In this document: positions 20,936-36,657 of the stretch, one piece after another
Position numbering within the stretch: position 1 is the stretch's first letter
Layout: each line of letters begins with the position of its first letter
Source of the DNA: a virus
Taxonomy: Duplodnaviria > Caudoviricetes
Direction: 5' to 3' (one strand)
IMG/VR virus record: IMGVR_UViG_3300037070_006243
Coordinates: 1 to 52,486 of that record
DNA length: 52,486 nt
Program-made: the position numbers and the translations under genes
Notes under the pieces: model-generated
Seen by the model: only the letters and a program-made list of their open reading frames with translations
What the model was told of the DNA's origin: nothing
Database searches by the model: none

Positions 20936-21316
20936 ATGCGCTTTCAGGATTTCAGCACCGCAAACCGCCGCCGCTGCGAGGCCGCAGTCGGCTTCAATCA
21001 CCCGCTCGCCAGATGGTCAACGTCCGACTGGTTCACCGCCGTCGTGGGAGAACTCGGCGAGGCTGCCAACATCGCGAAGAAGCTGAACCGTGTGCGCGAC
21101 GGCATCCCCGGCAACGATCAGACGCCAGACGAGTTGCGGGCCGCCCTCGCCGACGAGATCGCCGACACGTTCATCTATCTGGACTTGCTGGCGCAGTCGG
21201 AAGGCATCGACCTCGCGGCTGCGATTGTCGCGAAGTTCGACCGCACGTCGGCGAAGATCGGCTATCCCATGGCCCTCACCCCGCCTGCCACGGAGACGCC
21301 GGATGCCCAGCGGTAA
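20936..21316 (+). CDS. MazG-like nucleotide pyrophosphohydrolase
   Basis: GELGEAANIAKK...LADEIADTFIYLDLLA...IVAKF (all-alpha NTP-PPase ExxE...ExxD). Confidence 0.85.
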   Translation: MRFQDFSTANRRRCEAAVGFNHPLARWSTSDWFTAVVGELGEAANIAKKLNRVRDGIPGNDQTPDELRAALADEIADTFIYLDLLAQSEGIDLAAAIVAKFDRTSAKIGYPMALTPPATETPDAQR

Positions 21317-22523
21317 ATTCACATCCTACCCCATCGACTCAATAACCATCCTCCGCGACGACCGACAGCGACGTGACCTCGAAGACGTCTCCGACCTAAC
21401 CACCTCCATCACCCGCATCGGCCTCGTAAACCCGATCGTAATCACCCCGGAGGGTGTACTCGTCGCCGGAGAGCGCCGTCTGACCGCCTGCCGCCTGCTC
21501 GGTTGGACCGCCATCCCAGCGCAGTACACCACCGACCTCGACGAGATCGAGCTCGAACTGATCGAACTCGAAGAGAACCTCCGCCGGAAAGACATATCCT
21601 GGCAGGAACAATGCACCGCGATCCGCCGTATGCACGATCGCCTCATTCAAAAGAACGGCAATGACTGGACGCAGGCACAAACAGCCGAGTACCTCGGACA
21701 TACAGAAGCATTGGTTCAACGCTACCTCTTCGTTGAAAAAGAGCTTTCCGCGGGAAACACTCTTGTCGCCTCTGCTTCTGGGATCGTCACGGCAACGAAT
21801 ATGGTCCGGCGAAAAGAAAGCCGCGCCGTTGCGGAGCTTATCCGAAATATTAACCCACCGCAACATGAAGGCCCGCCTATACTCAACCTCGACTTTTATC
21901 AATGGCTGGAGTCATATGAAGGACGGCCGTTTAATTTTCTACACTGTGACCCTCCGTATGGAATAAAGATGCAATCAGCGGCTGGGATGAATAAAGCTAA
22001 CCGGGAGCGGTACGCGGACAACCCCGAGGACTTCTTCAACTTCGTCCGCGCCATCCCGCGCATCCCGATTGAAGACTCCTGCCATATGATGCTTTGGTTT
22101 TCCATGACGTTCTATCCGTGGACGAAATTGGAGCTACATAACCAGGGGTGGATTGTGTCGCCGTTTCCACTCGTCTGGGGCAAGTCAGACAACCTCGGCA
22201 TAATGCCCGACCCCGACCATGAAGGGAGACGTAACTATGAAACCGCGTTCCTCTGTACTAAAGGTCAGCGTAAACTTGCGCAACCAGTCTCTAACATTTT
22301 CTGGGGAGCGCGTGGAGATGATCTTCACCCTTCCGTCAAACCTCGAGATATGCTTCGACATTTCCTCCGAATGTTTGTCGATTCTACAACCTCAATGCTC
22401 GACCCCACATGCGGATCGGGTAATGCTGTCCGAGTCAGCAAAGATATGGGTGCTTCCTTAGTCCTCGGACTTGAGCGCGATCCCGTCTTCCACCGCGACG
22501 CCGTGACATATTGGAGTGAATGA
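21303..22523 (+). CDS. ParB/Srx N-terminal domain + HTH fused to beta-class N6-A/N4-C DNA methyltransferase
   Basis: GLVNPIVI...VAGERRLTA...EENLRR; WTQAQTAEYLG; DPPY (motif IV) precedes LDPTCGSG (motif I). Confidence 0.88.
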   Translation: MPSGKFTSYPIDSITILRDDRQRRDLEDVSDLTTSITRIGLVNPIVITPEGVLVAGERRLTACRLLGWTAIPAQYTTDLDEIELELIELEENLRRKDISWQEQCTAIRRMHDRLIQKNGNDWTQAQTAEYLGHTEALVQRYLFVEKELSAGNTLVASASGIVTATNMVRRKESRAVAELIRNINPPQHEGPPILNLDFYQWLESYEGRPFNFLHCDPPYGIKMQSAAGMNKANRERYADNPEDFFNFVRAIPRIPIEDSCHMMLWFSMTFYPWTKLELHNQGWIVSPFPLVWGKSDNLGIMPDPDHEGRRNYETAFLCTKGQRKLAQPVSNIFWGARGDDLHPSVKPRDMLRHFLRMFVDSTTSMLDPTCGSGNAVRVSKDMGASLVLGLERDPVFHRDAVTYWSE

Positions 22524-23795: not shown

Positions 23796-24247
23796 GGTGC
23801 CCTATGTTGCAATCTTCCTCCTCGTTCTATTCATCATCCTCAAACTCCTCAACCTCGTCCCGTAGTATACTAACCTCCGACGACATCATCTACATCCGCC
23901 GACTTATTCGTGAGGGGGTAAGTCATCGTCAAATAACTTCCCTTGTTCGAGTTGGTATGAGTAGGATTAAAAAAATCGCAATCGGCCAACTCTACCCCGA
24001 CCTTCCCGAGGTAATCCCCCTCCACGAATACGAACGGATTATGAAATTCAACAAAGGTATCCACGGCCGTTCTCACCGTTGTTATGCTCCATGGAAAACT
24101 CTTCCGCCAAAACTTCGTGAAGAATTTATCCGGTTAACAACCAGGAGCAGCAACAACCGCTACACCCATAACGAGGCGTATCGGAAGATCGGCCGAGCGG
24201 ACCTTATCAAATTGAGGATGGATCGGTGGAGTCGGAATGGTGATTGA
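23783..24247 (+). CDS. HTH-containing protein (true start uncertain, probably near 23867)
   Basis: LTSDDIIYIRRLIREGVSHRQITSLVRVGMSRIKKI resembles the HTH found after phage HNH domains; no HNH motif present. Confidence 0.5.
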   Translation: MVYMRCPMLQSSSSFYSSSSNSSTSSRSILTSDDIIYIRRLIREGVSHRQITSLVRVGMSRIKKIAIGQLYPDLPEVIPLHEYERIMKFNKGIHGRSHRCYAPWKTLPPKLREEFIRLTTRSSNNRYTHNEAYRKIGRADLIKLRMDRWSRNGD

Positions 24248-24312
24248 CTTCTCTTTCCGCGGCGGGTATCATACACATTCCTGCATGATGCACCAATACA
24301 CATGGTCCCACA

Positions 24313-24444
24313 ATGGCTAAAAAACCACTCGGCCCGCTCGCAAGATATGCATTCGGATACTCCGACAAGAAACCGGGATGGATGTATTGGGCAATCCATA
24401 TCGGAATGATAATCTTCCTTCTATACCGGTGCGTGCATGTATAG
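24313..24444 (+). CDS. Small membrane protein (43 aa)
   Basis: MAKKPLG...WMYWAIHIGMIIFLLYRCVHV. Confidence 0.4.
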   Translation: MAKKPLGPLARYAFGYSDKKPGWMYWAIHIGMIIFLLYRCVHV

Positions 24445-25522
24445 ACCCATCCTCCTCGTCGGGGAAGCCTACGGCGAGGAAGAGGACCGGCGGAAAACCG
24501 CATTCGTCGGACCGTCCGGCCGTTTCTTAAACTGGCTTCTTTCCGACGCCGGGATCGAGGGCGGGCGGTACATGGAGGACAACCGTGGAAAATACATCGA
24601 CTGGTCCGCTTCCCACGAGGTCTACCCTACCAACTGTTTCAACCTCCGCCCCCGACCGACTAATAATATCTCTAATCTCTGCGGACCACGGAGCGAAGGA
24701 ATCGTGGGTCTACCGGCGCTGGAACCGGGACTTTACCTCCGGCGAGAATATCAGGTGGAGCTTGACCGGCTCTGGGCCGAAATCGAGCGCATTGACCCCA
24801 ACATCATTATCGCGTTGGGAAACACCGCACTACTCATCCTTACGGGTTCGAAGCTCCCCATCACAAAAAACCGTGGAAGTCTCACCACTACTTCCCGCGC
24901 GCGTGCGGATGGCACTCCGTGGAAGGTACTTCCGACCTTCCACCCGGCAAACGTTATTCGCGAGCGCAGCCAGCGTCCCATCGTAATCGCAGATTTGATG
25001 AAGGCGAAACGCCATGCCGCTATCCCCAAATTCACTCGTCCCTCTCGCAATATCTGGGTTGAACCGACACTTGAAGACCTTACTCGATTCGAACTCCTAC
25101 ACATACGCGATTTCGAAGAACCCTGCGCAGTCGATATCGAAACCGCTCGGGGGACAATCACCGAGATCGGTTTCGCTCCAAGTCGAGATGAGGCCCTTGT
25201 GGTCCCCTTCTACTCTCGAACCCACAAGGATGGTAATTACTGGCGTACTTCAGGAGAAGAGAGAACTGCGTGGCTTTGGGTCGCTCGTATACTCCGAAAT
25301 CTACGAAAACCGATTTTCCACAACGGTCTCTATGACATCTACTACCTATGGCGAGCAATGCAGCTGCCGGTCCCATTTGGTGGAGAGGATACGATGCTTC
25401 TTCACCACTCTCTTCAGCCGGAAATGAAGAAGGCGCTGGGGTTCTTGGCCACGATCTACACCGAGGAACCAAGCTGGAAGTTCATGCGGAAAGAAGTAGA
25501 CACAACGAAGACGGAGGATTGA
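24437..25522 (+). CDS. Uracil-DNA glycosylase (family 4-like) fused to the N-terminal part of a PolA 3'-5' exonuclease
   Basis: LVGEAYGEEED...FVGPSG...IIALGNTA...TFHPA (UDG); AVDIET (ExoI); FHNGLYD (ExoII); DTMLLHH; no ExoIII. Confidence 0.88.
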   Translation: MYRPILLVGEAYGEEEDRRKTAFVGPSGRFLNWLLSDAGIEGGRYMEDNRGKYIDWSASHEVYPTNCFNLRPRPTNNISNLCGPRSEGIVGLPALEPGLYLRREYQVELDRLWAEIERIDPNIIIALGNTALLILTGSKLPITKNRGSLTTTSRARADGTPWKVLPTFHPANVIRERSQRPIVIADLMKAKRHAAIPKFTRPSRNIWVEPTLEDLTRFELLHIRDFEEPCAVDIETARGTITEIGFAPSRDEALVVPFYSRTHKDGNYWRTSGEERTAWLWVARILRNLRKPIFHNGLYDIYYLWRAMQLPVPFGGEDTMLLHHSLQPEMKKALGFLATIYTEEPSWKFMRKEVDTTKTED

Positions 25523-26071
25523 ATGATTATCGGAATCGCCGGGACCAAGGGCTCGGGGAAGGATACTATCGCGCTGCAATTGAAGAAGGAATATGAGTTC
25601 CACCATATCAAGTTCGCGGAACCGCTTAAGGAAATGCTTCGGGTTATCTTACAATATCGCGGAGCAAGTTTGCTCATGATCGACGCCATGCTAGAAGGGG
25701 ATCGGAAGGAGGTTCCGTCCGAATACTTCAGCGGACGTACTCCCCGCCACGCCATGCAAACCCTTGGAACTGAGTGGGGGAGGAACTGCATCGCCTCTGA
25801 TCTTTGGACTTCCATCGCCGCCGAGCGCACAGCGGCATTTGCAAAATTTGCAAACGTCGTGATCTCCGACATAAGGTTTCCGAATGAGGTGGAATGTGTG
25901 CATAAGCTCGGCGGAGAGGTTTGGCGGGTCATCCGCGATATGTCTCACCCCGCGGATCAGCATCCTTCGGAGATTCAGGTCGCAGGTCTTCACTGTGACT
26001 ACACTATCTACAACCTCGGCACGCTCGAACAACTCTATACAAAGATCACCAACCTTATGGTAAAGCCATGA
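25523..26071 (+). CDS. Deoxynucleoside monophosphate kinase (T4 gp1-like)
   Basis: IIGIAGTKGSGKDT, FAEPLKE, TPRHAMQTLGTEWGR, ISDIRFPNE, HPSE. Confidence 0.9.
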   Translation: MIIGIAGTKGSGKDTIALQLKKEYEFHHIKFAEPLKEMLRVILQYRGASLLMIDAMLEGDRKEVPSEYFSGRTPRHAMQTLGTEWGRNCIASDLWTSIAAERTAAFAKFANVVISDIRFPNEVECVHKLGGEVWRVIRDMSHPADQHPSEIQVAGLHCDYTIYNLGTLEQLYTKITNLMVKP

Positions 26072-26406
26072 TCTACCTCGCATCCCCCTACTCCAACCCC
26101 GATTTGGCAAAGATGCAACTCCGTTACGAGGTCGTTCGCGATCTAACCGCGAAACTTCTCAAGCGAGAGATATGGGTCTATTCCCCAATCGTACATTGCC
26201 ACGACCTTGCCGAACATAACGAAATGCCGAAGTCGTCCGAGTTCTGGTACAACTACAATGTGCATATGATGAGCCTCGCCGAACAGCTTTGGGTTCTTTA
26301 CATGGAGGGCACGGAAGAATCCAAAGGCATCGCCGGTGAAATCGCATGGTGGGAGGCTAACCGGTCTAAAGATACCCTCTCCTTCATCGTCGCCGACGCA
26401 TGGTAA
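26068..26406 (+). CDS. DUF1937-family protein (nucleoside 2'-deoxyribosyltransferase-like fold)
   Basis: MIYLASPYS...VYSPIVHCH...W...ESKGIAGEI. Confidence 0.8.
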   Translation: MIYLASPYSNPDLAKMQLRYEVVRDLTAKLLKREIWVYSPIVHCHDLAEHNEMPKSSEFWYNYNVHMMSLAEQLWVLYMEGTEESKGIAGEIAWWEANRSKDTLSFIVADAW

Positions 26407-27950
26407 GGGTAATCTCCACCGAAGACCTCCAACCCGGCCGGGCGATGGAGTCGTCCGACCTAACTTCATGGGTGTACAACGGGCTGGATTGCTGCGTTAC
26501 GCTGGAGATATACGATAGCTTAATCCCCCTCCTCGATCCACAAACAGTCGCCACCTACGAACTGGAAAAGGAACTCCAAGGCCCCGTCCTCGACATGAAT
26601 ATGTCCGGTATGCTCGTCGACAAACAAGAGTTGATGGAAGCTATCGGCTACATGACGGGACTTATTAACACCTACGAGCGGAACCTGAACCGCCTCTTCA
26701 CCGAAGGGTATGGGTTTGAAATAAACTGGCGCTCTCCGCAGCAACTCCAAACCTTCCTCTACGACTTCCTAAAACTCCCCCCGATTCGCAAGCGCAACGC
26801 CAAGGGCGGGTATTCCCGCACTGCCGACCGCGACGCGCTTGAGCGTCTTTCGATCTACCCCATCGTCTCCCCCGTCTGCGAGCATATGTTCGCGTTGCGA
26901 GATATGGCGAAGAAACTCGGCTTCCTTCAAACGGACATAGACACCGATGGATACATCCGCTCTTCCTATAACATCGCAGGTACAACCACGGGACGGCTGG
27001 CATCCGCGGAGTCCGCATTCGAAACCGGAAGCAATCTCCAAAATGTTGACCGACTACTGCGTCGTATCCTCATCGCTCCGGCGGGAAAGAAAATCTGTAC
27101 CATTGACTTGGAACAGGCAGACTCCCGTAATGTGGGGGCAATGTGTTGGAATAAGTTTCTCGCTGAACACGGATCCGCCTTCGCCGGGAGTTATCTGGGC
27201 GCGTGTGAGTCTGGAGACCTACATACCTCAGTTGTTCGAATGGGATGGCGAGATCTTAATTGGGGCGATGACGAACGGAACTTCCGTGCTGTTGCTGACG
27301 AAAACGCGTATCGAGATTATTCCTACCGGGACTTGGCTAAAAAGCTTGGACATGGTTCCAACTACTATGGCCAACCACCGACTATGGCAAAACACTCAAA
27401 ACTCCCTGTTGCTGTTGCAACGGATTTCCAAGCACTCTATTTTGAGGCATTTCCGTGTATTCCTCTCGGACATAAATGGGTTGAACGCGAGCTTAAGGCT
27501 GGTCGTCCTTTGGACACCCTTTTCGGACGGCGCCGCCGATTTTTTGGCGACCCAAACGACGATAAGACGCTTCGAGATGCGATCGCGTTCGTTGGACAAG
27601 GAAGCACCGCCGACGAAGCCAACCGCGGACTTCTTATGGTATGGAGGCAATGCAAAAGATTCCCCGGATTTCAGCTGATTGCGCAGGACCACGACTCGGT
27701 TTCCTTCTACTACGATGAAGAGACGGAGGATGAAATCGTTCCCTTCGCGTTGAAGTGTATGGAGGTTCATACCTACCTAGCCGGGGATCGGCCATTCTAC
27801 GTCCCCGGCGAGGCCAAGGTTGGATGGAACCGCGGAGACTACAGTGACTCCCCCGGAAAAAGACTAAACCTAGATGGAATGAAAAAATGGAAGAACGGGG
27901 ACTCGCGCAAGCGACAAGTCGGGCCGCGAGCAGCGTACAGCCTGAGGTAA
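26400..27950 (+). CDS. polA: Family A DNA polymerase (ExoIII + polymerase domain)
   Basis: YNGLD (ExoIII), NWRSPQQL, GTTTGRLAS, NLQNV, IDLEQADSR (A), GDLH, AKKLGHGSNYYG (B), TLFGRRR, QDHDS (C). Confidence 0.92.
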   Translation: MVRVISTEDLQPGRAMESSDLTSWVYNGLDCCVTLEIYDSLIPLLDPQTVATYELEKELQGPVLDMNMSGMLVDKQELMEAIGYMTGLINTYERNLNRLFTEGYGFEINWRSPQQLQTFLYDFLKLPPIRKRNAKGGYSRTADRDALERLSIYPIVSPVCEHMFALRDMAKKLGFLQTDIDTDGYIRSSYNIAGTTTGRLASAESAFETGSNLQNVDRLLRRILIAPAGKKICTIDLEQADSRNVGAMCWNKFLAEHGSAFAGSYLGACESGDLHTSVVRMGWRDLNWGDDERNFRAVADENAYRDYSYRDLAKKLGHGSNYYGQPPTMAKHSKLPVAVATDFQALYFEAFPCIPLGHKWVERELKAGRPLDTLFGRRRRFFGDPNDDKTLRDAIAFVGQGSTADEANRGLLMVWRQCKRFPGFQLIAQDHDSVSFYYDEETEDEIVPFALKCMEVHTYLAGDRPFYVPGEAKVGWNRGDYSDSPGKRLNLDGMKKWKNGDSRKRQVGPRAAYSLR

Positions 27951-27952
27951 GG

Positions 27953-29128
27953 GTGACAGACTGGCTAACCGCTTTCGCCGGGTTAACGCAGAGCTTGAAG
28001 ACACCGGACCTTTTTAAAAGATGGTCCGGTGTTTTCACGTTAGGCGCGGCTATGCAAAGGCGGGTATGGCTCCTATCCGATTCACGAGAGGTATTCCCCA
28101 ACCTATATGTATTCCTCTGCGCCCCGCCGGCGACTGGTAAGGGAGTTGCACTCGATCCGTGTACGGACCTTCTTACATCCCTCGAAGATCACTTCGTTGG
28201 TACTCGAAGCATGACCGCGGCGGCGCTCGCGGATGAGATAAACGAAGCAACGGTGTCCATCTTTGTGAACGGCGAGGGTGTGCAGTTCAACCCTCTTACA
28301 ATTATATCCGACGAGCTTGGCGTTTTTCTCCCCGTCTACGACGCGATTATGATGTCGCGCCTTACCGATGTTTACGACTGTAAGGGGTACTCCGAACGCA
28401 CCCGAGGCGGGGATCGCATCACCGTAGACAAAGCTCACCTATCCCTGATCGCCGGTTGCACTCCGGCACGACTCCAAAACATGCTCCCCGACGGTGCCTG
28501 GAACGAGGGTTTCATGTCCCGCGTAATCTTAGTCTACGGAAGCTTTGATGAAAACCGAATGATTTCTGAAGAACGATCTAACTACTCTCCGGGTATGTTC
28601 AACGTTCTTCGGGATGAATTAATATCCCGCACCTCACGCTATGGCCGGGTGCGATGGTCCGCCGAAGGCTTAGAGGCCGCGAATGTGTGGATGCGAGCCA
28701 AAATGGCACCGCGCCCACAGCATCCAAAACTCGTCTTCTACAACGGACGACGACATTGGAACTTTATGAAGCTAGTTCTAATCTTCTGCATATCCAGAAA
28801 CGGAGACCTCGTAAACGCAGATGATGTACTGAATGCGCAGGACCTACTATTGGAAACCGAGACGTACATGTCCGATGCGTTCAAAGCGATGCGTTCGGGC
28901 GGGGATCAAGAGGTCATGGAAGAACTCTACCACTGGCTATACACGCTCGGGGTCAAAGATAACCAACCCCGAGCACGTATGTATCTTGTCCGATTCCTCG
29001 CCGAACGCGTCCCTGCTCATGCTATTGAGAGGATCATCCTCGCCATGCTTGGAGGAGGAATGATAACAGAGGAACAGGTGAAGAATATCGGCCCGTGCTA
29101 CCGCGCAGCAAAGTTGGATATAGAATGA
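27953..29128 (+). CDS. DUF3987/YfjI-like P-loop ATPase (putative replicative helicase), no primase domain
   Basis: FPNLYVFLCAPPATGKG Walker A, IISDELGVF Walker B, GFMSRVILV; GTG start after GAGG. Confidence 0.75.
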   Translation: MTDWLTAFAGLTQSLKTPDLFKRWSGVFTLGAAMQRRVWLLSDSREVFPNLYVFLCAPPATGKGVALDPCTDLLTSLEDHFVGTRSMTAAALADEINEATVSIFVNGEGVQFNPLTIISDELGVFLPVYDAIMMSRLTDVYDCKGYSERTRGGDRITVDKAHLSLIAGCTPARLQNMLPDGAWNEGFMSRVILVYGSFDENRMISEERSNYSPGMFNVLRDELISRTSRYGRVRWSAEGLEAANVWMRAKMAPRPQHPKLVFYNGRRHWNFMKLVLIFCISRNGDLVNADDVLNAQDLLLETETYMSDAFKAMRSGGDQEVMEELYHWLYTLGVKDNQPRARMYLVRFLAERVPAHAIERIILAMLGGGMITEEQVKNIGPCYRAAKLDIE

Positions 29129-32100
29129 CTAATCCCTCGTCTCAGGAAGCCCCGATGATTCAGCAACCTTTTGAAACGCTTGTCGAGCCCAGATTATATT
29201 GTTGTATGGAGTCAATTGACGTACTGTATTCGCAGTTGATTGAGTTGGAGAATCAACTTCACTCACAAGTTTCAGCGCTCGATTTAATGTGGTATACGAC
29301 GGACCTGCGACGGAACCTAGAACGTTCCCGGCAAACCTTCGGTCAGTACCTTCATCGGATACGGTTAGGTAATCTCTCGTCCCCGGAATCGCCTGACCAA
29401 TCTTCATCGCCTGCGCAAACACCCCAAGGAACGGAGAGCGAGCAATTATCTCATCCGCCCACTTGTCATAGTCCTGATTCTGAGCTTCTTCCCACTCACC
29501 ACGAGCCATTTTATCCACAGCATAACTCAATGCCCCAAGGGCCGTCCCAACTAAAATACCCTCAAGTACCGCCGAGTCCCGCTGCTGAAGACCCGCCATC
29601 AAAACCTTAGTATTGGACGACCACATGAAACTCTGGAACTGGAATAGAAGCTTATGCCCCATCGACGCGTCGACAAAGAGCGCTCGCTCCAATCCAGGAG
29701 TAACAATCGTCCCCTCAACTTGGGAGAGAATCGCAGCGCGGAATGCCTCCACCGCCCCGGGATCATCCCATGATTGTGTGTTGGGAACCCAGAGATCGCC
29801 GCTCTGAACCAACCCGCCATTATCCTGTTGCCGCCAAATCCTTTCAGCGAGGTCACCGTCGATATGAGCATAAGCCAGAGTTTCCCGAGCTTCAGCCTGC
29901 GACATCCACCGCTTATTCCCGGTCATAACCGCGTCGAGTGCGTCAAGTATTTTCCCGGCAGCGACCGGCGTGACCCACTGTTTCATTATCTGCGTCCATT
30001 GAGAGTACAACCCAACCACGCCTATCTTATTTGCAAGGAACTCTGCGCCTTTTTCAAAACTGTTCCGCCGCCCAGTATCTTCCATAAGATCGGCGACTTG
30101 GTAGAAATGGTTTTGAAGAAGCATATCATTCATACCGTTGTAGAGAGCCTCCCGCTGCGCGAAGCGAAGGTTTTTCAAATCAGTGATATATGGCTTCAAC
30201 GCATGTCGCCAAACACGTCGGAAGCCGTACTTGTAAACGGCAATAGCGGGGTCTACGAGGGATGGCGCAAGAACATTGCCCATCATGGTGAGCACGTTCC
30301 ATTGCTGGAGCAGCCTACCCCCGCGATAGAGGTACGAATCCGGATCAGCAGGAACCGCGCGCTGATGTCGGAGTCGCTGGACCTGCCCGACGAAAGCCTG
30401 CTCTGTCTTCACCGCCTCCCGTTGGAGTCGATCCTGTTCCGCTTCTTTCTGTTTCGGGTCAAGATCCTCTCTGGCACCAATTCTCTGCCGCTCACGTTCG
30501 TAGACTTTCCGGATCTTTTCGATCGCGACCGAGCCGTTAAGACCCATCCCGGCTTTGGTCAGTTCGACGTCTGGAACGACGTTGCGGGCGTAGATACGGA
30601 TTAGCTTGTCCATATCCGATTCGAGGTAACGCATCTTTTCTTCGATAGGAATGTCCAGGGTGCGGAGTTGTTCAGCCCCGCGTTCTGCACCTAGGTCGAG
30701 GGAAACTACGCGAGTTGGATCACCGATGATCTTTTGTCGGGTGATTTGGGCGTATTCTTTTCCACCGACAGAGAAGTCAACCGTCCCGTCATCGTTAATC
30801 GTACCGCCGTTCTTTCGCACCCACTCGGTCATATCCTCATTTCGGCGGACGATGTTGGACTCTATCTCTCCAATCTTCGCCTTGGACAGTGCGGGGTCGA
30901 GTTTGGCGTGAACCGGAAACAACCGCGCCTTCGCGACTGCAAGCTGCTCCTGCCGCGCGAAAATATCCGCGTTTACATCATGGAACCATTCCTCGATCTG
31001 GGTCCGGGCGAACTCCGGTCCTTCTAGATGCGCATCGTCTAGCATCTGCCGAAGCTCTGCGAGGTGGGCGGACTTTGATTCCCGTCGCATACCGGAGACG
31101 GTTTTGGTCGGATCGAACTCGGTCCCATCCGCCTTCAACCCGTGCTTTAGTTCCAATCGCTCGAGGTCGGCGTCGAGGATGGAGATCTCTGTCTCCAAAT
31201 CCTTCACGTCCCGGATCAGGGACTTCAATCCTACGGCGTAGGCTTTATCTGAAAGTCCCTTCCGATCCTTGATAAACGAGGCCGCTTTCGCCGCAGTCCG
31301 CCGAAGTGCAGCGATCGCGGTTTCTTCGATCTCCTCCATCCGCTCAACCACGCGCTGTTGGCGAACCTCAAGTCGGCCAACAGCACGGGAGAGGAGTGTT
31401 GACCGCCGCCGCTTCCGGTTATCCGCGGCGATCATCGCGCGGTCCATCGGATTCAGGCGAGATTCAATATTCTTAATCCGGTCCTTAATCTCATGTTCGA
31501 GGCCGGCACGGAATGGACGCGCGGACGGACCAACGAGGTCCACCCCCTCACCTTCCGCGATCTGCTGTTGCACCTGCCGAAGCTGGCGCTTGAGCATCGC
31601 ACGTTCTTCCGCCAGCTCTCCCGCCTTAGTTTTGGCAAACTCTTCCCGTTGCGTGCGGATTTCCGCCTGAATCTCCGACACATCTTCATCCGTCCGAGAG
31701 AGGTCTTTAATATCCTCCTTCGCCCCGGTCTCAAACGTCTTTGCCTTCTGGAGTCGCCTGGCATACTCCATCGCCATCTTCTTCTGGTACGACTCCATAA
31801 TCAATTGATCGAACCCGGTCGGGTCTTTGATAATCGCGTTCTTGTTGTAGATATGGGTGAGGTAGAACGCTGCGCCGACAATATCGTCCTCGGCCAAATC
31901 TTTTGGAAGGAGTTCGTTCTCCTGAAGCTCCTTGAATAGCGGGGTGTAAAACTCATCCCGCAAGCGCGTGGCCAGTTCCCGAACTTCGGGGAGCGCCGAC
32001 GGCTGCGGCCGCTGCATTTCAAGAAACACCTGCTCGTTGAACTGCCGGCGGGAGAGCTTGCCTCCATGCGGGACAACTCCGAGCCACTCTGCGCGGGTAC

Positions 32101-33142
32101 GATCGAGGTAGTTTAGCTTTTCCTTACCCGTCTCATACTTCCCATACGCATCGTTGATGGCCTGTTGGCCCTTCTGAATATACGTCCGCATATTCAACTC
32201 AGTCTTAGACTCTACCGTCCCGCCCTTGGCGTATACCTCACCATCCGCCTGCGCCTTAAAATGCAACCCTCCATCCGCGAGCGTGGCTTGAATACCGCGA
32301 ACTTCTGGGATTTCACTAACCAAGGCTTGGAGAGATGATGCCTTGATCATCAACCGCATGGATTTATCCATGATCTTTCGGCCAACAGATGCCTCGGCGA
32401 ACTCCTCTTTCGAGAGAACGTCTTTCAGAAATCCGGGGTCCTGGGTTGGGTTCAGCCGTTTATTCGCAACCGCCGCACCAACACCTTCCGTCTCCCCGAT
32501 CCCGGGAAGCGCGGCCGAGTCCCAACCGCCGATCCGCCGTCCCTCTTGTCTGCCGTAGTTCTGCGCAGCGGCAACCATTTCCCTCGGCGACAGCGCCGAC
32601 ACCGCCACACCCAACACCCCGCCAAGCGCAGCGGTCGCGAGGATATTCGCCCGGCTTTCCGCCGCCGTCCGCGTTAGCTGATTCGCCGAGAGCACCGCCT
32701 CATCAATCGCTGCTGAACTTCCAGCCAGCGCTGCCACCGCACCAATTCCGCGTAATCCGCGTCCAACCGCCCCAAACGGGACAAAGGTCGAGGGAGAGAA
32801 GATTCCAGCCGCAAAGTTCGTGGCGAAACCTGTAAAGCCGCTAGCCGCAAGAATCGCTCGACGCTTCTCCTCTTCCCGAAGCCGAGCTTCTGTATCGAGG
32901 GCCTCGCCCCGGCTTCGCACATCTTGGAACAGATTTTGATATGGTACGAGGTCAGGCCGCTCCTGAAAGAAGTCGTAGAGAGTGAACTTCGGGTCTGGTT
33001 TGAAATCATTAGCGGACAACATATCGAACATATTGACGAACCCCGACTCCTGTTTGAAGGAGGCGTCGAGGGTTTCGCCGAAGGAATAAGCGGGTTCTGA
33101 GGTGCGCGGTCCATAGAGGGGCTTCGGTTGAAAATCGACCAT
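29129..33142 (-). CDS. Large internal virion (ejection) protein
   Basis: 1337 aa, helical/coiled-coil, last of three T7 gp14-16-like genes. Confidence 0.75.
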   Translation of the reverse strand: MVDFQPKPLYGPRTSEPAYSFGETLDASFKQESGFVNMFDMLSANDFKPDPKFTLYDFFQERPDLVPYQNLFQDVRSRGEALDTEARLREEEKRRAILAASGFTGFATNFAAGIFSPSTFVPFGAVGRGLRGIGAVAALAGSSAAIDEAVLSANQLTRTAAESRANILATAALGGVLGVAVSALSPREMVAAAQNYGRQEGRRIGGWDSAALPGIGETEGVGAAVANKRLNPTQDPGFLKDVLSKEEFAEASVGRKIMDKSMRLMIKASSLQALVSEIPEVRGIQATLADGGLHFKAQADGEVYAKGGTVESKTELNMRTYIQKGQQAINDAYGKYETGKEKLNYLDRTRAEWLGVVPHGGKLSRRQFNEQVFLEMQRPQPSALPEVRELATRLRDEFYTPLFKELQENELLPKDLAEDDIVGAAFYLTHIYNKNAIIKDPTGFDQLIMESYQKKMAMEYARRLQKAKTFETGAKEDIKDLSRTDEDVSEIQAEIRTQREEFAKTKAGELAEERAMLKRQLRQVQQQIAEGEGVDLVGPSARPFRAGLEHEIKDRIKNIESRLNPMDRAMIAADNRKRRRSTLLSRAVGRLEVRQQRVVERMEEIEETAIAALRRTAAKAASFIKDRKGLSDKAYAVGLKSLIRDVKDLETEISILDADLERLELKHGLKADGTEFDPTKTVSGMRRESKSAHLAELRQMLDDAHLEGPEFARTQIEEWFHDVNADIFARQEQLAVAKARLFPVHAKLDPALSKAKIGEIESNIVRRNEDMTEWVRKNGGTINDDGTVDFSVGGKEYAQITRQKIIGDPTRVVSLDLGAERGAEQLRTLDIPIEEKMRYLESDMDKLIRIYARNVVPDVELTKAGMGLNGSVAIEKIRKVYERERQRIGAREDLDPKQKEAEQDRLQREAVKTEQAFVGQVQRLRHQRAVPADPDSYLYRGGRLLQQWNVLTMMGNVLAPSLVDPAIAVYKYGFRRVWRHALKPYITDLKNLRFAQREALYNGMNDMLLQNHFYQVADLMEDTGRRNSFEKGAEFLANKIGVVGLYSQWTQIMKQWVTPVAAGKILDALDAVMTGNKRWMSQAEARETLAYAHIDGDLAERIWRQQDNGGLVQSGDLWVPNTQSWDDPGAVEAFRAAILSQVEGTIVTPGLERALFVDASMGHKLLFQFQSFMWSSNTKVLMAGLQQRDSAVLEGILVGTALGALSYAVDKMARGEWEEAQNQDYDKWADEIIARSPFLGVFAQAMKIGQAIPGTRDYLTVSDEGTDRRFAGNVLGSVAGPSYTTLNRALKLVSEVDSPTQSTANTVRQLTPYNNIIWARQAFQKVAESSGLPETRD

Positions 33143-35664
33143 TACCGTGCTAGTTCCCGTTCTATTTCTTCTAGTCTGCGAGTCACACGGTCCATCTTCT
33201 CTGCGAAGTCGGGCATGGATGGATCGAGGAGGGATTGTTCCTCAAGCAGCGCGCCGCGCCGACCTTCAAAGTTCTGGTTTTCGATTAGGATTTTCCCGTA
33301 GTCGTAGAACACCGGCTGAGTTATCGCCTTCATCTTTCCCGGATTGGAGACGAAGTCGTGGTAGTCTACTTCCCCATCCTCATCCACCGGGATGACCAGA
33401 TAAGGGATTGGTTTCCCCTGAGCGATTGCGAGTTCAGTTTCCGGGAACGGGGTGAGGATATACCGGTCAATCCCGAACTCCCTCCGCACAGTTCGATCCA
33501 TCGTAATACTGGCTTGGGTTGGGGTGAGGCGGACTGCTTCGGTTTCACCATCTCCATCCACGTCGTATTGGAAATTGGAAAGTGCGATCTCGGGCGGGAG
33601 CCACATCATCTGCTGCTGGCCGCCGGTGGAGGTTGCGCCCCAAGTCTCCCCAATCTTCTTCAGCGCGAGGTCTTTCGCACCCTCGGCGTTGAGCGTAGTC
33701 GCATAATAGCCGTCAAAGAGGGCTTGATATTGCTGCTGAAGGAGTGCACCAGCGCGACCACTCGGCGGACGAATGTCCCCGGAAAGGGGAAGCCATGAGT
33801 CAAAAGTGTTGGTTATATCCGCGGGGAGGAGGGCCTCCATATCCGCGTAGGACTTATCCGCCTTCTTGATCGCTTCCAGAGATTTCCTTCCCTCAACCGT
33901 AGAGGAAACATCCATAATCTCCTGAATCTGATCAGACGGAAGTCGCGTCGCCCGGAGCCAGTTATACCCCGACGCGCGCTGGACGAATTCATCCGGGAGG
34001 TTCATTGTCAGCGCCGGGTTTGTTCGGTTAAGCTCCGCGTAGATTTCCGCCGCGGTTCCCACCTCGTCGAGGTTCTGTGAGAACAGCATCCGCGTCATCT
34101 GGGTTTGCATTGCCTCGGGGATGAAGTTGATCGCCTGAGCGCGGGCAATGGAGGTGTCAATCGCCTCTTTATTCCCCTGCGCGATACCCTGAACGAGGGC
34201 GGGAGGCATCATCAGATTTCCCTCCGCGGCGGACAGAGGTTCCCCGGTGGACGCCTTCCGATACGCCTCCTGCGTTTTATATTGCGTTTCCAGCACGCGG
34301 TTGGAGATAGCCTGCCCGGCGTTCAAGTCGTTTTGGTTATACGCGACCTGTCCATTCTCCACCGCCTCGAGGTACATCGGACGGAACTCTTCCCCACCTT
34401 CCGCACGGGCGTTGAGTCTCTGAAGCGCAACCTCCTGCGCCTGGGTGGCGAGTTCAAGGCGCGTAGTTATAGTCTGCTGCGCATCTCGCTCGGCCTGACC
34501 CATGATCTGCTGGATTTGAGAATCGGCGGCGAGAGCCTGATCCAATCCCAATCCATACTGTGGGTCGAACGCCATATCGGGAGTGATACCGCCGATACTC
34601 GCGGTAATCTTATCCACGTAATTCTTCGTCTCATCTGGGAGAACGGCGCGGTTCCGTCCCGCGGCTTGATATTTATCTGCCATTCCTGGTCCGGCATTGT
34701 ACGCGACGAGCGCCAGTTCTACATCTCCGCCATACCGCTGAAGCTGCTCGTTGAGGTAAAACGTGCCGTACTTCACAGACACATCTGGGCGCCGGAGATA
34801 CGCCGGCCAATCCGCTGCATCCTCCGGGAAATTTCTGTCATGAATCTTTTGTGCGATATAATACCCTGTGGCAGGCATAACCTGCATGAGGCCTTGGGCG
34901 CCCTTAGACGACACCGCGTTTGGATTACCATCGCTCTCTTGCCGCATTACCGCGGGGACAAGTCGCTGCGTTACATCTGGAGAGTAAGGAACAGCATACA
35001 TATTCTCTCGCCCGGTGCGGAGCATCCCGCCGAACGCTGCGCCGTTGAGCGCGGACAACCCGCCATCCGCTTTCACCGCACGCTCATCCGGTCGGAGTCC
35101 TGGCGCAGCCCCGACCATCCCCGCGATCCGCGCCTCTACCTCCGCCTTCTTCGAAGGATCGCGATAGACCTCCAACCTTCCGTCTTCAATCGCCTTATCT
35201 ATCGTAGTGATCGAGTGTCCACGGGTCGCCGAACGCGTGAACTCATCCGCAGACAGGACCAGCGAATTTTTGAAATCCTCAGCTTGGGGGGCATAACGTT
35301 CCTGAAGCCAGGAGGGTATGCTCTTCTGAAATTCATCATACCCTTTCTGCCACGTAGTAGCCGCGAGCCCAGCGTAGCCCGAACCATCTGCGGGGAGACC
35401 CGTAGTGGCACCCGCAACGTTGCGACGAACAGCACCCTCAAATTGGTTATACTTGAGCATCGCATCGTAATTCTGCCGCTCCTCTTCCTCCTTCGTGCGG
35501 ATGGCGAGGTATGCGCCGCCAAGCTGCCCAACGTTGCCGAGGGCATTCGCGAGCGACCCAAGTCCGGACATATCCGCCTCGGGCATGACTCGGGGTTCAG
35601 CGATCTGTCGCCGGGAACCATATGCCTGCTGGCCGGAGGGAACGTCTTGTGCGCCGATCTTCAT
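33142..35664 (-). CDS. Internal virion protein with lytic transglycosylase (SLT) domain
   Basis: RQESDGNPNAVSSKGAQGLMQVMPATG...ALVAYNAGPG...ETKNYV. Confidence 0.9.
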   Translation of the reverse strand: MKIGAQDVPSGQQAYGSRRQIAEPRVMPEADMSGLGSLANALGNVGQLGGAYLAIRTKEEEERQNYDAMLKYNQFEGAVRRNVAGATTGLPADGSGYAGLAATTWQKGYDEFQKSIPSWLQERYAPQAEDFKNSLVLSADEFTRSATRGHSITTIDKAIEDGRLEVYRDPSKKAEVEARIAGMVGAAPGLRPDERAVKADGGLSALNGAAFGGMLRTGRENMYAVPYSPDVTQRLVPAVMRQESDGNPNAVSSKGAQGLMQVMPATGYYIAQKIHDRNFPEDAADWPAYLRRPDVSVKYGTFYLNEQLQRYGGDVELALVAYNAGPGMADKYQAAGRNRAVLPDETKNYVDKITASIGGITPDMAFDPQYGLGLDQALAADSQIQQIMGQAERDAQQTITTRLELATQAQEVALQRLNARAEGGEEFRPMYLEAVENGQVAYNQNDLNAGQAISNRVLETQYKTQEAYRKASTGEPLSAAEGNLMMPPALVQGIAQGNKEAIDTSIARAQAINFIPEAMQTQMTRMLFSQNLDEVGTAAEIYAELNRTNPALTMNLPDEFVQRASGYNWLRATRLPSDQIQEIMDVSSTVEGRKSLEAIKKADKSYADMEALLPADITNTFDSWLPLSGDIRPPSGRAGALLQQQYQALFDGYYATTLNAEGAKDLALKKIGETWGATSTGGQQQMMWLPPEIALSNFQYDVDGDGETEAVRLTPTQASITMDRTVRREFGIDRYILTPFPETELAIAQGKPIPYLVIPVDEDGEVDYHDFVSNPGKMKAITQPVFYDYGKILIENQNFEGRRGALLEEQSLLDPSMPDFAEKMDRVTRRLEEIERELAR

Positions 35665-36335: not shown

Positions 36336-36657
36336 AGAAGTAGTGCTCCTCGTTATAGTCCCCGAGCCGCGTGAACCCGAAGAAATCAGCGAACCGCTGT
36401 GCGCGGAAATCTTGTTTATGCACTCCGGCGTAGATGAAGCGCCAGCCTTTCATCCCGTCGAGCCAGAGGCGGATTGCTCCGCGTAACTTCGGGGTTCGTA
36501 GATTCCGGCCCGGGATGAGCCAGACGAAAACTTCCCGTGTTAGTACTCCAGTTCGAGTCATTCCAAACCGGAAGATTTCTCCATCCTCGTCGGAGATGGA
36601 GTAGACTTTATCCGTCAGGGGGTATTTTTCCGCAAGCTCAAGCACCGACAGAGACAT
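36175..36657 (-). CDS. T7 gp13-like/GNAT-fold virion assembly protein
   Basis: VWLI...VHKQDFRAQRFADFFGF; canonical position after the nozzle gene; C-terminus overlaps the next gene by ~160 nt. Confidence 0.55.
   Translation of the reverse strand: MSLSVLELAEKYPLTDKVYSISDEDGEIFRFGMTRTGVLTREVFVWLIPGRNLRTPKLRGAIRLWLDGMKGWRFIYAGVHKQDFRAQRFADFFGFTRLGDYNEEHYFYGLRNDPDGTERRDERRLWSDWTSARDRWRESGRASWDIPKRDSEESGDARGI

Follow-up and report, generated by a model that had tools for sequence, protein, structure and literature searches.

Split family A DNA polymerases have been described in S-SBP1-like phages, where gene fission of a T7-like PolA produced adjacent exonuclease and polymerase genes whose products are predicted by AlphaFold to reassemble (Czernecki et al. 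2023, NAR, PMC10201439). Family A polymerases that also carry a UDG domain (UDG-PolAs) are known as single chains from SPO1-like, SP15-like (phiLo, YerA41) and N4-like phages (PMC10201439; Missoury et al. 2026, PMC13697223). In the Klenow-type exonuclease the catalytic residues are Asp355, Glu357, Asp424, Tyr497 and Asp501 (PMC9629493).

Here we describe a polymerase locus in a 52,486-nt stretch of phage DNA (the window; IMG/VR record IMGVR_UViG_3300037070_006243), in which the break falls within the exonuclease domain. We consider it very probable that the replicase encoded here is a natural two-subunit family A polymerase, which arose by an old fission and whose exonuclease site is completed in trans, the genes in the gap being incidental.

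Organization of the locus

The locus consists of four genes that all adjoin or overlap (Table 1). The stop codon of ORF1 (TGA) is followed without a spacer by the ATG of the kinase gene, with GGAGGA located 5 nt 5′ of this ATG; the kinase and DUF1937 genes overlap by ATGA, and the DUF1937 gene and ORF4 by 7 nt (ATGGTAA). These two genes occupy the 877 nt between ORF1 and ORF4. The four reading frames, their domains, the motif positions and the tight coupling given in an earlier note on this DNA were reproduced exactly to the base by ORF, Pfam/PHROG and coordinate checks. The stored gene call for ORF4 in the protein collection is 501 aa long (P0217), consistent with a start at M16; the start at 26400 is supported because the 15 residues upstream of M16 are conserved among homologues. 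The DUF3987 gene is a syntenic partner of the polymerase, and lies 3′ of the C-part in most related loci and also in Mel-JY34. Sigma-70-like sites in the region occur at chance level (3 found vs. 3.9 expected).

Table 1. Features of the polymerase locus (window coordinates).
Feature	Position	Strand	Description
Sigma-70-like promoter match upstream of ORF1	24244-24272	+	TTGACT-17-TATCAT, 10/12 matches; weak lead
ORF1 (N-subunit gene)	24437-25522	+	361 aa; PF03167, phrog_17
ExoI (AVDIET; D233-I-E235)	D233-I-E235 from 25133 (annotated 25133-25141)	+	D233, E235 invariant in alignment A1
ExoII (FHNGLYD; N296...D300)	FHNGLYD from 25316 (25322-25336 annotated)	+	N296, Y299, D300 invariant in alignment A1
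ORF2 (gap gene 1, dNMP kinase)	25523-26071	+	182 aa; PF21448, phrog_139
ORF3 (gap gene 2, DUF1937 / nucleoside 2-deoxyribosyltransferase-like)	26068-26406	+	112 aa; PF09152, phrog_355
ORF4 (C-subunit gene)	26400-27950	+	516 aa; PF00476, phrog_17
N-terminal extension of C-subunit (residues 1-23)	26400-26468	+	M(R/K)IIxT...L.P pattern; extra vs. fused relatives
ExoIII (Y26-N-G-L-D30 of ORF4)	26475-26489	+	Y26, D30 invariant in 44/44 C-parts
DUF3987 primase/helicase-like gene	27887-29128	+	PF13148, 5.6e-13; phrog_14296 'DNA primase', 2.3e-37

Conservation of the split among relatives

The earlier note had proposed a survey of homologous genomes for the split point, and this survey places the break at the identical aligned position in all 73 loci that carry both halves and in Caulobacter phage Kuura, an isolated plaque-forming phage (PMC9959647). 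The 73 loci, in which the N-part precedes the C-part on one strand, come from a set of 80 related IMG/VR loci; six of the other seven end within 641 nt past the N-part stop, and one (L017) has the halves on opposite strands. In the 73 loci the N-part always ends with ...WK(x)n...K(R/K)(D/E)(D/E) and a stop, and the C-part always starts ~20-25 residues ahead of Yx3D, a motif which lies inside the first 45 residues of the C-part in every case. The junction regions include 66 distinct sequences among the 73.

Database comparisons give the same picture. The best 120 homologues of the N-part measure 331-467 aa and are 46-65% identical, whereas fused forms reach only 25-38%, and 119 of the best 120 C-part homologues have lengths of 496-542 aa. 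A profile search of 1.84 billion protein representatives returned 2736 matches at E<=1e-30, the best 150 of which are all stand-alone N-parts of 254-407 aa. In the polymerase tree ('quick' search, midpoint root, every second split sequence, junction columns included), the 24 split rows (window, Kuura and 22 loci) fall on one side of a branch and the 20 fused rows on the other, with an SH-aLRT value of 100 and a single change on the tree. On this tree the split has a single origin, at the root of a large lineage of phages, Kuura among them. The split is old, and is very common in this one phage lineage.

These relatives also bear on whether the split is simply damage or an artefact, i.e., polymerase gene decay within a defective element or chimerism of the assembly, as might be suspected from a metagenome-derived virus record and from a dNMP kinase that is found in the gap of this genome only (0/80 loci). 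Against this, Kuura, which is a viable isolate, and hundreds of diverged relatives have the same split and invariant catalytic residues, and the CheckV completeness of the window is 100%. Positions 24300-28000 are also intact, with 0 differences, in contigs of three soil-metagenome DNA runs at depths of 62-161, although these runs are possibly the source of the record and so not independent. The split is not an assembly artefact, and we regard damage or artefact as a whole as extremely unlikely. None of the RNA runs contains the stretch.

The divided exonuclease site

ORF1 and ORF4 are consecutive parts of one polymerase profile, since the second half of ORF1 matches positions 552-788 of phrog_17 ('DNA polymerase') and ORF4 matches positions 809-1246. 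ORF1 comprises a family-4-like UDG domain (about residues 1-195; PF03167 is matched over residues 5-179 with 59.4 bits, cut-off 24.3) and then a partial 3′-5′ exonuclease fold. The latter is the first two thirds of the fold, and contains ExoI, ExoII, a DTML helix and a conserved WK...KED tail; the Pfam 3′-5′ exonuclease family PF01612 has no match in ORF1 at E<=0.1, and is matched by some homologues only. In ORF4 (PF00476 DNA_pol_A, 96 bits, cut-off 34.3), the N-terminal extension and the ExoIII helix are followed by the thumb, palm and fingers of a family A polymerase. When aligned with fused relatives, the break comes after the WK... segment and ahead of the W-x-YNxxD motif, and the spacing from WK to W.YN is ~15 residues in fused forms vs. 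~36 in split forms.

Eight residues are invariant in the 44 C-part homologues of alignment A3 (Y26, N27, D30, D236, R310, K314, H431 and D432), the last five of which we take to be polymerase motifs A, B and C. The heads of the 73 C-parts show a recurrent M(R/K)IIxT...L.P pattern, with I4 kept in at least 90% of A3. Judging from the alignments, the catalytic residues appear to be under purifying selection on both halves of the divided site.

Contents and origin of the junction

Both gap genes have clear family assignments (ORF2 vs. PF21448 dNMP kinase, 73.4 bits, cut-off 27.1, and phrog_139, 7e-49; ORF3 vs. PF09152 DUF1937, 34.3 bits, cut-off 23, and also phrog_355), but they differ in distribution. 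No homologue of the kinase occurs in any of the 80 related loci, whereas a relative of ORF3 lies in the corresponding gap of 21 of the 73 loci (tblastn), and phrog_355 matches 24 of 75 gap ORFs. In 14 of the 73 pairs nothing intervenes and the halves adjoin or overlap (gap of −4 to +3 nt); the remaining 59 have gaps of 138-1924 nt. Nucleotide-pool genes predominate in the gap, and a few relatives have HNH endonuclease genes there. The gap content groups into 42 clusters unrelated to one another, which suggests that genes were gained repeatedly and independently. The junction serves as a variable slot for small genes. The earlier note tied the split to the two gap genes; both are indeed present, but the split is independent of them, since 14 loci have nothing between the halves, and the kinase was found in the gap of this genome only.

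Alternatively, a gene cassette could have entered an intact UDG-PolA gene and so created the split, and later been lost from the abutting relatives. The gp43 gene of some T4-like phages is split by such a cassette insertion. Here, the gap is filled in 59 of 73 loci and can contain HNH endonucleases, the most basal split row on the tree (Kuura) has two small ORFs in its gap, and the ~20 extra junction residues of split vs. fused forms are possible insertion remnants. However, abutting pairs turn up in different parts of the split clade, the second most basal row (L043) among them, and 12 of the 14 share one frame offset, which fits descent from one overlapping stop/start, like the frameshift origin of S-SBP1 (PMC10201439). 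The 42 clusters of gap content also speak against a single cassette. We consider a cassette origin possible but rather doubtful; that fission came first is not proven.

It might also be asked if the halves are rejoined, whether through splicing of the RNA (a group I intron with an ORF), protein trans-splicing (a split intein), or ribosomal frameshifting or read-through. Mobile insertions occur in the polymerase genes of related phages, and the SPO1 polymerase gene has an ORF-bearing group I intron. One related locus (L014) has an intein-like insert of ~297 aa inside the polymerase domain, and the HNH endonucleases in a few gaps and the frame offset shared by 12 of 14 abutting pairs could be viewed in the same light. 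In the window, however, there are no Rfam matches, intron families included, at E<=1 in 24000-28200, and two genes with above-threshold Pfam matches and overlapping neighbours fill the 877-nt gap end to end, which leaves no room for an intron core structure and could not be bridged by frameshifting. The N-part ends with ...KED and the C-part starts with MVRVIS, with no Cys/Ser seen at the intein N-junction, no HN+Cys/Ser/Thr at the C-junction, and both termini short in comparison with fused relatives. The stop and start are kept in all 73 loci. Rejoining in any of these forms is hardly credible.

Predicted assembly of the two subunits

Co-folding of ORF1 and ORF4, which the earlier note had suggested, docks the ExoIII helix at ExoI/II with ipSAE values of 0.88, 0.88 and 0.89, compared with 0.00 for the best control, although a pass is to be expected for the halves of a split enzyme, owing to their likeness to solved single-chain PolA structures. 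The runs share at least 85% of contacts, with partner pLDDT values of at least 83; 58 of 80 solved complexes come up to the mark used for co-folds, as do 2 of 110 mismatched pairs. In the model, residues 229-257, 293-298 and 315-348 of chain 1 form an interface with residues 1-68 of chain 2, in which the ExoI region (229-235) contacts C-subunit residues 23-42 and the ExoII region (293-298) contacts the ExoIII helix. Residues 1-8 and 10-13 of the C-subunit are also within the modelled interface, and its N-terminal extension may be a clasp onto the N-subunit. The co-fold shows that the fold can be completed, which is not proof of binding by these proteins.

An alternative is that no stable replicase is formed, with the C-part being an exonuclease-deficient polymerase that retains a remnant ExoIII, and the N-part a free uracil-repair factor with a dead exonuclease remnant. 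Stand-alone exonuclease-domain proteins such as ExnV1 exist (PMC9629493), as do truncated PolAs such as CCPol, which keeps three exonuclease helices (PMC10201439), and the halves of L017 are on opposite strands. The dead-remnant reading is nonetheless hard to hold, because the exonuclease motifs are invariant on both halves (Y26 and D30 in 44/44 C-parts, DxE and NxxxD in 27/27 N-parts). Furthermore, as we read the Klenow-type fold, its core would be incomplete if the ExoIII helix were missing. Nearly every locus has the two genes next to each other or translationally coupled, and the co-fold is confident. We judge this alternative to be improbable.

The earlier note's proposal of a DEDD site built in trans by a UDG-Exo/Pol heterodimer is supported by the constant break in 73/73 loci and Kuura, the invariant residues and the co-fold, and by the search for an intron, which found none, and for intein-type residues at the two termini, where none were seen. 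The data establish the anatomy of the genes, their conservation, a single origin on the tree and the variability of the gap; physical heterodimerization, an exonuclease activity present solely in the complex, and the function of the UDG domain are inferences. In the two-subunit replicase that we favour, subunit N (ORF1) would supply the UDG-like domain and the DEDDy exonuclease part with ExoI and ExoII, and subunit C (ORF4) a short and conserved extension at its N-terminus, the helix with ExoIII (Y26, D30) and the complete polymerase domain. Both would be translated from one operon, and on docking, the ExoIII helix of C would complete both the fold and the metal site of the exonuclease in N, with the UDG domain beside the exonuclease/polymerase as in single-chain UDG-PolAs. 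Neither subunit would be expected to proofread alone. The fission would be one old event at the base of the lineage, without dependence on the present gap genes, and the junction would have become a permissive slot in which small genes come and go, mostly nucleotide-pool genes and occasionally HNH endonucleases.

The UDG domain

Motif A of the UDG part is GEAYG. Only two cysteines (C67 and C82) are found in residues 1-195, and the UDG part begins 5 residues ahead of motif A, so a four-cysteine Fe-S site is impossible; the earlier note had likewise reported GEAYG and the lack of N-terminal Fe-S cysteines. Its further suggestion that the domain may not be a glycosylase is unsupported, since E10 is invariant in the 27 N-part homologues of alignment A1 (as is F23), and at least 90% of these retain H169 (N66 likewise). 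In our alignment, E10 and H169 appear to correspond to E53 and H178, which are the catalytic residues (Glu and His) of phiLo UDG-PolA, an active enzyme (PMC13697223). A non-glycosylase reading is likewise not refuted, since 27/27 members have another residue in place of the motif-A proline (Tyr here; in relatives Trp, Phe, Leu or Ile) and no Fe-S cysteines are present.

Comparison with known systems

As in S-SBP1, a phage family A polymerase is divided, and the products are predicted to rebuild the single-chain fold. The S-SBP1 exonuclease gene gp15 (171 aa) has, by our reading, all three motifs (DLE, NIIGYD and YCIQD); its proofreading site stays on one chain because the break comes after ExoIII, at the domain border, whereas here the break precedes ExoIII and the site would be common to two chains. 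S-SBP1 is without a UDG domain, its halves overlap with no intervening genes reported, and its new termini are described as loose, while the new N-terminus here is conserved and within the modelled interface. The polymerase subfamily is also different, in that no T7-like phage is present among the 40 phage matches listed per half, which include SPO1-like, Thermus, Listeria and Microcystis phages.

The single-chain UDG-PolAs have the same domain order (N-terminal family-4-type UDG, 3′-5′ exonuclease, polymerase), and the N-part profile weakly matches a solved 1142-aa chain, 'Putative DNA-directed DNA polymerase I' (9qhs, E 1.4e-5). The Glu and His that we align with phiLo E53 and H178 are retained as in the active SPO1/SP15 type, unlike the N4 type, but those enzymes are one polypeptide and this one is two, and the motif-A proline is replaced here and in the relatives. 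SP15-like phages have T-modified DNA, whereas thymidine-modification genes were not found among the 20 replication-module ORFs scanned. The word 'split' is absent from Missoury et al. 2026 (PMC13697223).

Kuura belongs to the same lineage and has the same break at ~36% identity to the window, with a UDG-Exo gene annotated as 'hypothetical protein', two small ORFs and a polymerase gene (gp29 and gp26; OQ067476). The available part of the Kuura paper names only 'a DNA polymerase', with no mention of a split in that part (PMC9959647). Neither of the two gap ORFs (98 and 102 aa) matches a Pfam family.

In some T4-like phages, gp43A and gp43B make up a split family B polymerase. According to the available parts of the sources, phiKZ-like phages have family B exonuclease and polymerase on separate chains (PMC3201878), and a chimallivirus polymerase, also family B, is split (PMC13648687). 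The present enzyme resembles these in that a viral replicative polymerase is encoded by two genes and would work as a complex, although the polymerase family and the break points are different. To our knowledge, and within the parts of those sources available, none of them is reported to have a UDG domain or an exonuclease catalytic motif moved to the polymerase chain. A two-protein arrangement with a shared proofreading site is undescribed in the literature searched. Split PolA itself is already known (S-SBP1), and what is new here is the division of the active site. If our reading is true, the DNA-copying enzyme of a soil phage is two proteins, which together would complete one proofreading site.

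Gene layout and family matches

With 52,486 bp and a CheckV completeness of 100%, the window is a complete virus record of IMG/VR, and its replication module contains four ORFs that lie head to tail on the plus strand and are followed by a primase/helicase-like gene. Below, we refer to ORF1, in which a family-4-type UDG domain (PF03167) precedes the exonuclease domain, as the N-part, to ORF4 as the C-part, and to ORF2 and ORF3 as the gap genes.

Coordinates and family matches of the four ORFs and the adjoining gene
Feature	Coordinates	Strand	Length	Matches and remarks
ORF1	24437-25522	+	361 aa	PF03167 UDG, 59.4 bits (cut-off 24.3), residues 5-179
ORF2, dNMP kinase	25523-26071	+	182 aa	PF21448, 73.4 bits (cut-off 27.1); phrog_139, 7e-49
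ORF3, DUF1937	26068-26406	+	112 aa	PF09152, 34.3 bits (cut-off 23); phrog_355, 3.4e-05
ORF4	26400-27950	+	516 aa	PF00476, 96 bits (cut-off 34.3), residues 99-459
DUF3987 primase/helicase-like gene	27887-29128			next after ORF4

The two outer ORFs correspond to successive parts of one PHROG DNA-polymerase profile, phrog_17, of which positions 552-788 match the second half of ORF1 and positions 809-1246 match ORF4. A profile built from 44 C-part homologues matches the Taq, Bst and Klenow chains with E-values of 1e-33 to 4e-38. For ORF3, phrog_355 is named nucleoside 2-deoxyribosyltransferase in PHROGs, and the PF05014 score of 17.7 bits is under the cut-off of 28.8.

The junctions of the four ORFs are tightly coupled. 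The TGA of ORF1 is followed directly by the ATG of ORF2, with GGAGGA 5 nt upstream, while ORF2 and ORF3 overlap by ATGA and ORF3 and ORF4 by 7 nt (ATGGTAA). Terminator and promoter searches inside the operon gave matches at chance level only. The last codons of ORF1 (..T-E-D-stop, 25505-25522) include the GGAGGA, a usable ribosome-binding site for the gene that follows, and this combined use for coding and ribosome binding may in part have shaped the conserved acidic K(R/K)(D/E)(D/E) tail seen in the N-parts. The region 24300-28000 is present unbroken and with 0 differences in contigs from three soil-metagenome runs, which are possibly the source of the IMG/VR record, so that the contigs are not independent of it. 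Among the runs listed as containing this stretch there are no RNA runs. In the protein collection, ORF4 is stored as a 501-aa protein (P0217), as would be expected for a start at M16 (nt 26445). Conservation in ORF4 homologues extends over the 15 residues before M16 (M-x-[IV]-I-x-T pattern), and a start at 26400, overlapping the DUF1937 stop, is therefore the better call.

The surroundings of the module have counterparts in other phages. A ParB-like N-terminal domain fused to a DNA methyltransferase is encoded at 21090-22523, and a methyltransferase gene is also found upstream of the polymerase gene in Microcystis phage Mel-JY34, Vibrio phage VS-ABTNL-3 and MW202489, so the module order is conserved. 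Three minus-strand ORFs of very large size (1337, 840 and 985 aa; 29129-39595) converge on the replication module, and large opposite-strand ORFs also follow the DUF3987 gene in Mel-JY34 and VS-ABTNL-3.

The exonuclease site is divided between two chains

All three motifs of a DEDDy (DnaQ-like) 3'-5' exonuclease are present and conserved, namely ExoI (DxE), ExoII (NxxxD) and ExoIII (YxxxD), and they are found on two polypeptides: ExoI and ExoII in ORF1, and ExoIII in ORF4, 877 nt downstream. The earlier note had described this split, and its motif positions prove exact: ExoI (D233, E235) starts at 25133, ExoII (N296, D300) at 25316, and ExoIII (Y26, D30 of ORF4) at 26475. D233, E235, N296 and D300 are invariant in an alignment of 27 N-parts (27/27), as are Y26 and D30 in an alignment of 44 C-parts (44/44). 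The latter alignment also has D236, R310, K314, H431 and D432 as invariant residues and Y322 in at least 90% of the sequences; we read these six as belonging to polymerase motifs A, B and C. ORF1 has no match to PF01612 at E<=0.1, and a few of its homologues carry a precomputed match to this family.

When aligned to fused relatives, the break falls between a conserved WK segment and the W-x-YNxxD helix. This stretch has about 15 residues in fused forms, as compared with about 13 on the N-part tail plus about 23 on the C-part head in split forms. The latter thus have about 20 extra junction residues, most of which form the conserved head of the C-part. A DEDDy site requires the tyrosine and aspartate of ExoIII, and reading of the ORF1 sequence found no other Yx3D or Hx3D downstream of ExoII, so that the site can be completed only in trans. 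The Klenow equivalents of the ExoIII residues, Tyr497 and Asp501, are listed together with Asp355, Glu357 and Asp424 (PMC9629493).

An intron- or intein-interrupted polymerase gene would restore a single chain, and was rejected. An Rfam scan of 24000-28200 gave 0 matches at E<=1, intron families included, and comparison of the termini with fused relatives revealed no intein-type residues at either side of the break. The gap between the halves is fully coding which, with no intron family matched, makes a rejoined product very unlikely. Away from the break, an insert occurs within the C-part of one related IMG/VR locus (L014, 7351-9786) and of an 804-aa collection protein (P0223): the 812-aa polymerase of L014 has an insert of about 297 aa between FGTG and TNLQN that begins with Cys and ends with Gly-Asn before Thr. 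By these features the insert resembles an intein; neither protein matched an intein family of Pfam at E<=0.01.

Conservation and spread of the split

The split is an ancient and conserved one, and it is very common. In a collection of 5.8 billion proteins, the top 120 matches to ORF1 have a length of 331-467 aa (92-100% coverage, 46-65% identity), and the matches longer than 632 aa are 96 UDG+PolA fusions with just 25-38% identity. The best 120 relatives of ORF4 are likewise uniform, with 119 having 496-542 aa; the exception is P0223, which has a PolA match only and no UDG. A profile of the 27 N-parts matched 2736 of 1.84 billion cluster representatives at E<=1e-30, and the best 150 of these are all 254-407 aa long.

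The same alignment of N-parts detected at least 521 loci encoding a relative in IMG/VR, as compared with one distant locus (L005) for a scan with ORF4 alone. We fetched the best 80, and in 73 of them an N-part is followed by a C-part on the same strand. Six of the other seven have a contig end no more than 641 nt after the N-part, and these seven are outside the junction survey. The seventh (L017, a contig of 5826 bp) has its halves on opposite strands and pointing apart (N-part, 4123-5109, plus; C-part, 2801-1332, minus); if this is not a misassembly, the halves can be unlinked.

ExoI/II and ExoIII are on separate chains in all 73 loci, a number that includes one locus (L073) whose C-part ORF is only 137 aa, with the remainder matching the minus strand, and which is possibly misassembled. 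The N-part ends at one aligned place in 73/73, after the conserved WK...K(R/K)(D/E)(D/E) tail, and the C-part starts in 73/73 some 20-25 residues ahead of Yx3D, with M(R/K)IIxT... as a recurring pattern of its head. Among the 73 junction regions, 66 are distinct in sequence.

Of the rows in a maximum-likelihood tree based on the polymerase part, 24 are split (the window and Kuura among them) and 20 are fused, and a branch with an SH-aLRT of 100 has all the split rows on one side, which corresponds to one state change. The tree is from a quick search with a midpoint root; it contains every second member of the C-part alignment, with the junction columns kept and one protein (P0156) dropped because it had no BLAST match to the C-part.

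Caulobacter phage Kuura, a plaque-forming podophage (PMC9959647), has the same layout, consisting of gp29 (UDG-Exo part, 36% identity), two small ORFs, and gp26 (polymerase, 36% identity). Its gp29 is annotated as "hypothetical protein", and the part of the phage description available to us refers to the polymerase as just "a DNA polymerase" (PMC9959647). There is thus a large phage lineage with the split throughout and with one cultured member, and annotations do not reflect it: N-parts are named "uracil-DNA glycosylase", "DNA polymerase" or "hypothetical protein" in the sources, and a C-part taken alone resembles a PolA without exonuclease. The clade would therefore be misread in surveys of the diversity and fidelity of viral PolAs.

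Gap genes and the origin of the split

The earlier note had tied the gap genes to the split, and this link turns out to be incidental, as the two halves abut or overlap in 14 of the 73 loci. In these 14 the C-part start is at a distance of -4 to +3 nt from the N-part stop (seven pairs overlap by ATGA, three overlap by 1 nt, and four have 0-3 nt between), and 12 of them have one frame offset in common; in the other 59 loci the distance is 138-1924 nt.

Counting plus-strand ORFs of at least 45 aa, the gaps contain 79 ORFs (75 distinct) in 42 sequence clusters. Among the 75, Pfam identifies DUF1937 in 16, DUF4406 in 15, DUF7768 in 14, HNH_3 in 2, and MazG, PRA-PH and methyltransferase in 1 each; the first three are related nucleoside-deoxyribosyltransferase-like families, which probably overlap on the same proteins. 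In PHROGs, 24 match the deoxyribosyltransferase family phrog_355, and there are several MazG-like pyrophosphatase and several HNH endonuclease families. Relatives of the window's DUF1937 protein occur in the gap of 21 loci, and its dNMP kinase has no relative in the 80 loci. Gap content also appears to vary within the same soil metagenomes: in runs X1 and X2, a contig of lower depth (about 11) matches the flanks 25465-25488 and 26469-26517 with 888 unrelated letters between, which indicates a co-occurring relative with different gap content.

The split might have arisen by insertion of a gene cassette, and Kuura, the most basal split row of the polymerase tree, does have a filled gap. We consider this origin rather unlikely; the abutting pairs are scattered across the split clade and include its second most basal row. 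Our reading is that fission came first, or was at least self-standing, and that the junction later became a permissive slot that has collected mostly nucleotide-pool genes.

Co-fold model and proposed assembly

The co-fold of ORF1 and ORF4 was computed from two alignments, one for each part, and gave ipSAE values of 0.88, 0.88 and 0.89 as compared with 0.00 for the best control, values to be read in the knowledge that two halves of one split enzyme will tend to pass through their likeness to solved single-chain polymerases. In calibration, 58 of 80 solved complexes reached the mark of the method, as did 2 of 110 mismatched pairs. The runs have at least 85% of their contacts in common, with a partner pLDDT of at least 83. 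The lowest-error contacts are between C-part residues 24-38 and N-part residues 231-233, 245-255, 293-295 and 319, and so place the ExoIII helix next to those strands and loops on which ExoI and ExoII are located; the modeled interface also includes C-part residues 1-8 and 10-13. The model shows that the fold can be completed, rather than that the two proteins bind.

The proposal of a heterodimeric replicase with a proofreading site assembled in trans, made in the earlier note, appears well supported, on the basis of the comparative evidence. The best explanation, which we hold to be highly probable, is a natural two-subunit family A replicase whose DEDDy site is assembled between the N-subunit and the C-subunit. 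The one split PolA found in the literature has a complete domain on each of its subunits; in the window lineage a catalytic motif of the site, ExoIII, is on the polymerase chain, and proofreading should therefore exist only in the complex of the two.

A broader reading, which we put forward as speculative and improbable, is that the division of the DEDDy site is functional rather than neutral, and provides a detachable subunit for fidelity and uracil surveillance, tunable proofreading, and a plug-in slot at the junction. The UDG-ExoI/II protein would then become an exonuclease only once clamped on the ExoIII helix and the conserved N-terminal clasp. Subunit stoichiometry could tune proofreading or allow an exonuclease-free polymerase mode, and the junction would be a lineage-wide slot for nucleotide-pool enzymes that are co-translated with the replicase.

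Apart from this broader reading, the two-subunit replicase would offer several uses. Kuura and its Caulobacter host are a ready system for the study of subunit assembly and of how uracil is handled, coupled to replication, by a UDG whose motif A is non-canonical, and also for the question of why nucleotide-metabolism genes have their hot spot at this gene junction. Enzyme engineers, too, could be interested in a polymerase in two pieces, whose proofreading and UDG module is separable.

The UDG domain

Family-4 UDGs of the PDB match the N-part at 3e-14 with the single sequence and at 3e-27 with a profile, and the N-part profile also weakly matches 9qhs, a 1142-aa "Putative DNA-directed DNA polymerase I" (1.4e-5). 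Motif A of family 4 UDGs is GE(A/G)PG, as in Thermotoga maritima (GEGPG). In the window it is GEAYG, and none of the 27 aligned N-parts has the proline, which is replaced by W, Y, F, L or I. Four cysteines bind a 4Fe-4S cluster in family 4, as compared with only two (C67 and C82) in residues 1-195 of ORF1. The protein starts 5 residues before motif A, and with just these two cysteines and no N-terminal stretch a four-cysteine Fe-S cluster is impossible. An insertion of about 18 residues (24563-24620, ORF1 residues ~43-62) follows a conserved AGI, and is shared with only three of the 26 other aligned N-parts (P0002, P0014 and P0015).

E10 and F23 are invariant, and N66 and H169 are present in at least 90% of the 27 sequences. 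Aligned by eye to the residues named in PMC13697223, E10 and H169 correspond to E53 and H178 of phiLo. According to the part of that paper available to us, these are the catalytic residues of the phiLo UDG-PolA, which removes dU ahead of the fork. ORF1 thus retains both the catalytic Glu (motif A) and the catalytic His (motif B) of active SPO1-like/SP15-like UDG-PolAs, and the suggestion that its UDG is inactive is not supported. The domain has about an even chance of being an active, replication-coupled uracil glycosylase, with a uracil sensor or a processivity module remaining as alternatives. Thymidine-modification genes (thymidylate-synthase-like or hydroxymethylase), which would have tied the UDG and the kinase to modified DNA, are absent from the 20 replication-module ORFs where these have PHROG matches; the matches are to helicase, exonuclease, Sak4-like, weak MazG-like and ParB-methyltransferase families. 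The role of the UDG does not affect the main finding of a split replicase.

Comparison with known polymerases

Literature searches found no published description of a UDG-PolA split before ExoIII (the supplementary alignments of PMC10201439 and PMC13697223 might bear on it), no report of a family A polymerase whose 3'-5' exonuclease site is obligately assembled in trans, and no occurrence of the term "DUF1937". Single-chain UDG-PolAs are described in the available parts of PMC10201439 and of Missoury et al. 2026 (PMC13697223), the latter of which does not contain the word "split". In these SPO1-like/SP15-like enzymes, UDG, exonuclease and polymerase form one chain, whereas the window has two genes.

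Other cases differ from the window. The gene is single and fused in Microcystis phage Mel-JY34 (810 aa) and in MW202489 (779 aa); the latter looked possibly split in the match table and was rejected. ExnV1 (7r0t), considered as a split before ExoIII, is a stand-alone exonuclease domain, yet holds the Asp501 equivalent. In Vibrio phage vB_VspS_VS-ABTNL-3 (MF497422, 3956-7090; locus L003), the UDG-PolA is split elsewhere, inside the polymerase domain, with a 184-aa ORF that has no Pfam match between the parts, and this looks like an independent interruption.

A known split of a similar kind is that of the T7-like phage S-SBP1, whose exonuclease and polymerase genes are adjacent and derive from fission, as in the window lineage. 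According to Czernecki et al. (PMC10201439), the S-SBP1 split goes back to a frameshift, and its new termini are loose. The 171-aa product of its exonuclease gene (gp15 of MT424636) holds ExoI, ExoII and ExoIII (YCIQD), so that the break comes after a complete proofreading site, at the exonuclease/polymerase border, whereas in the window lineage it comes before ExoIII. The window lineage differs further in having a UDG domain, a different PolA subfamily, a conserved new N-terminus, and a variable gene slot at the junction. It is thus a second, independent type of PolA fission, one that divides the active site itself.
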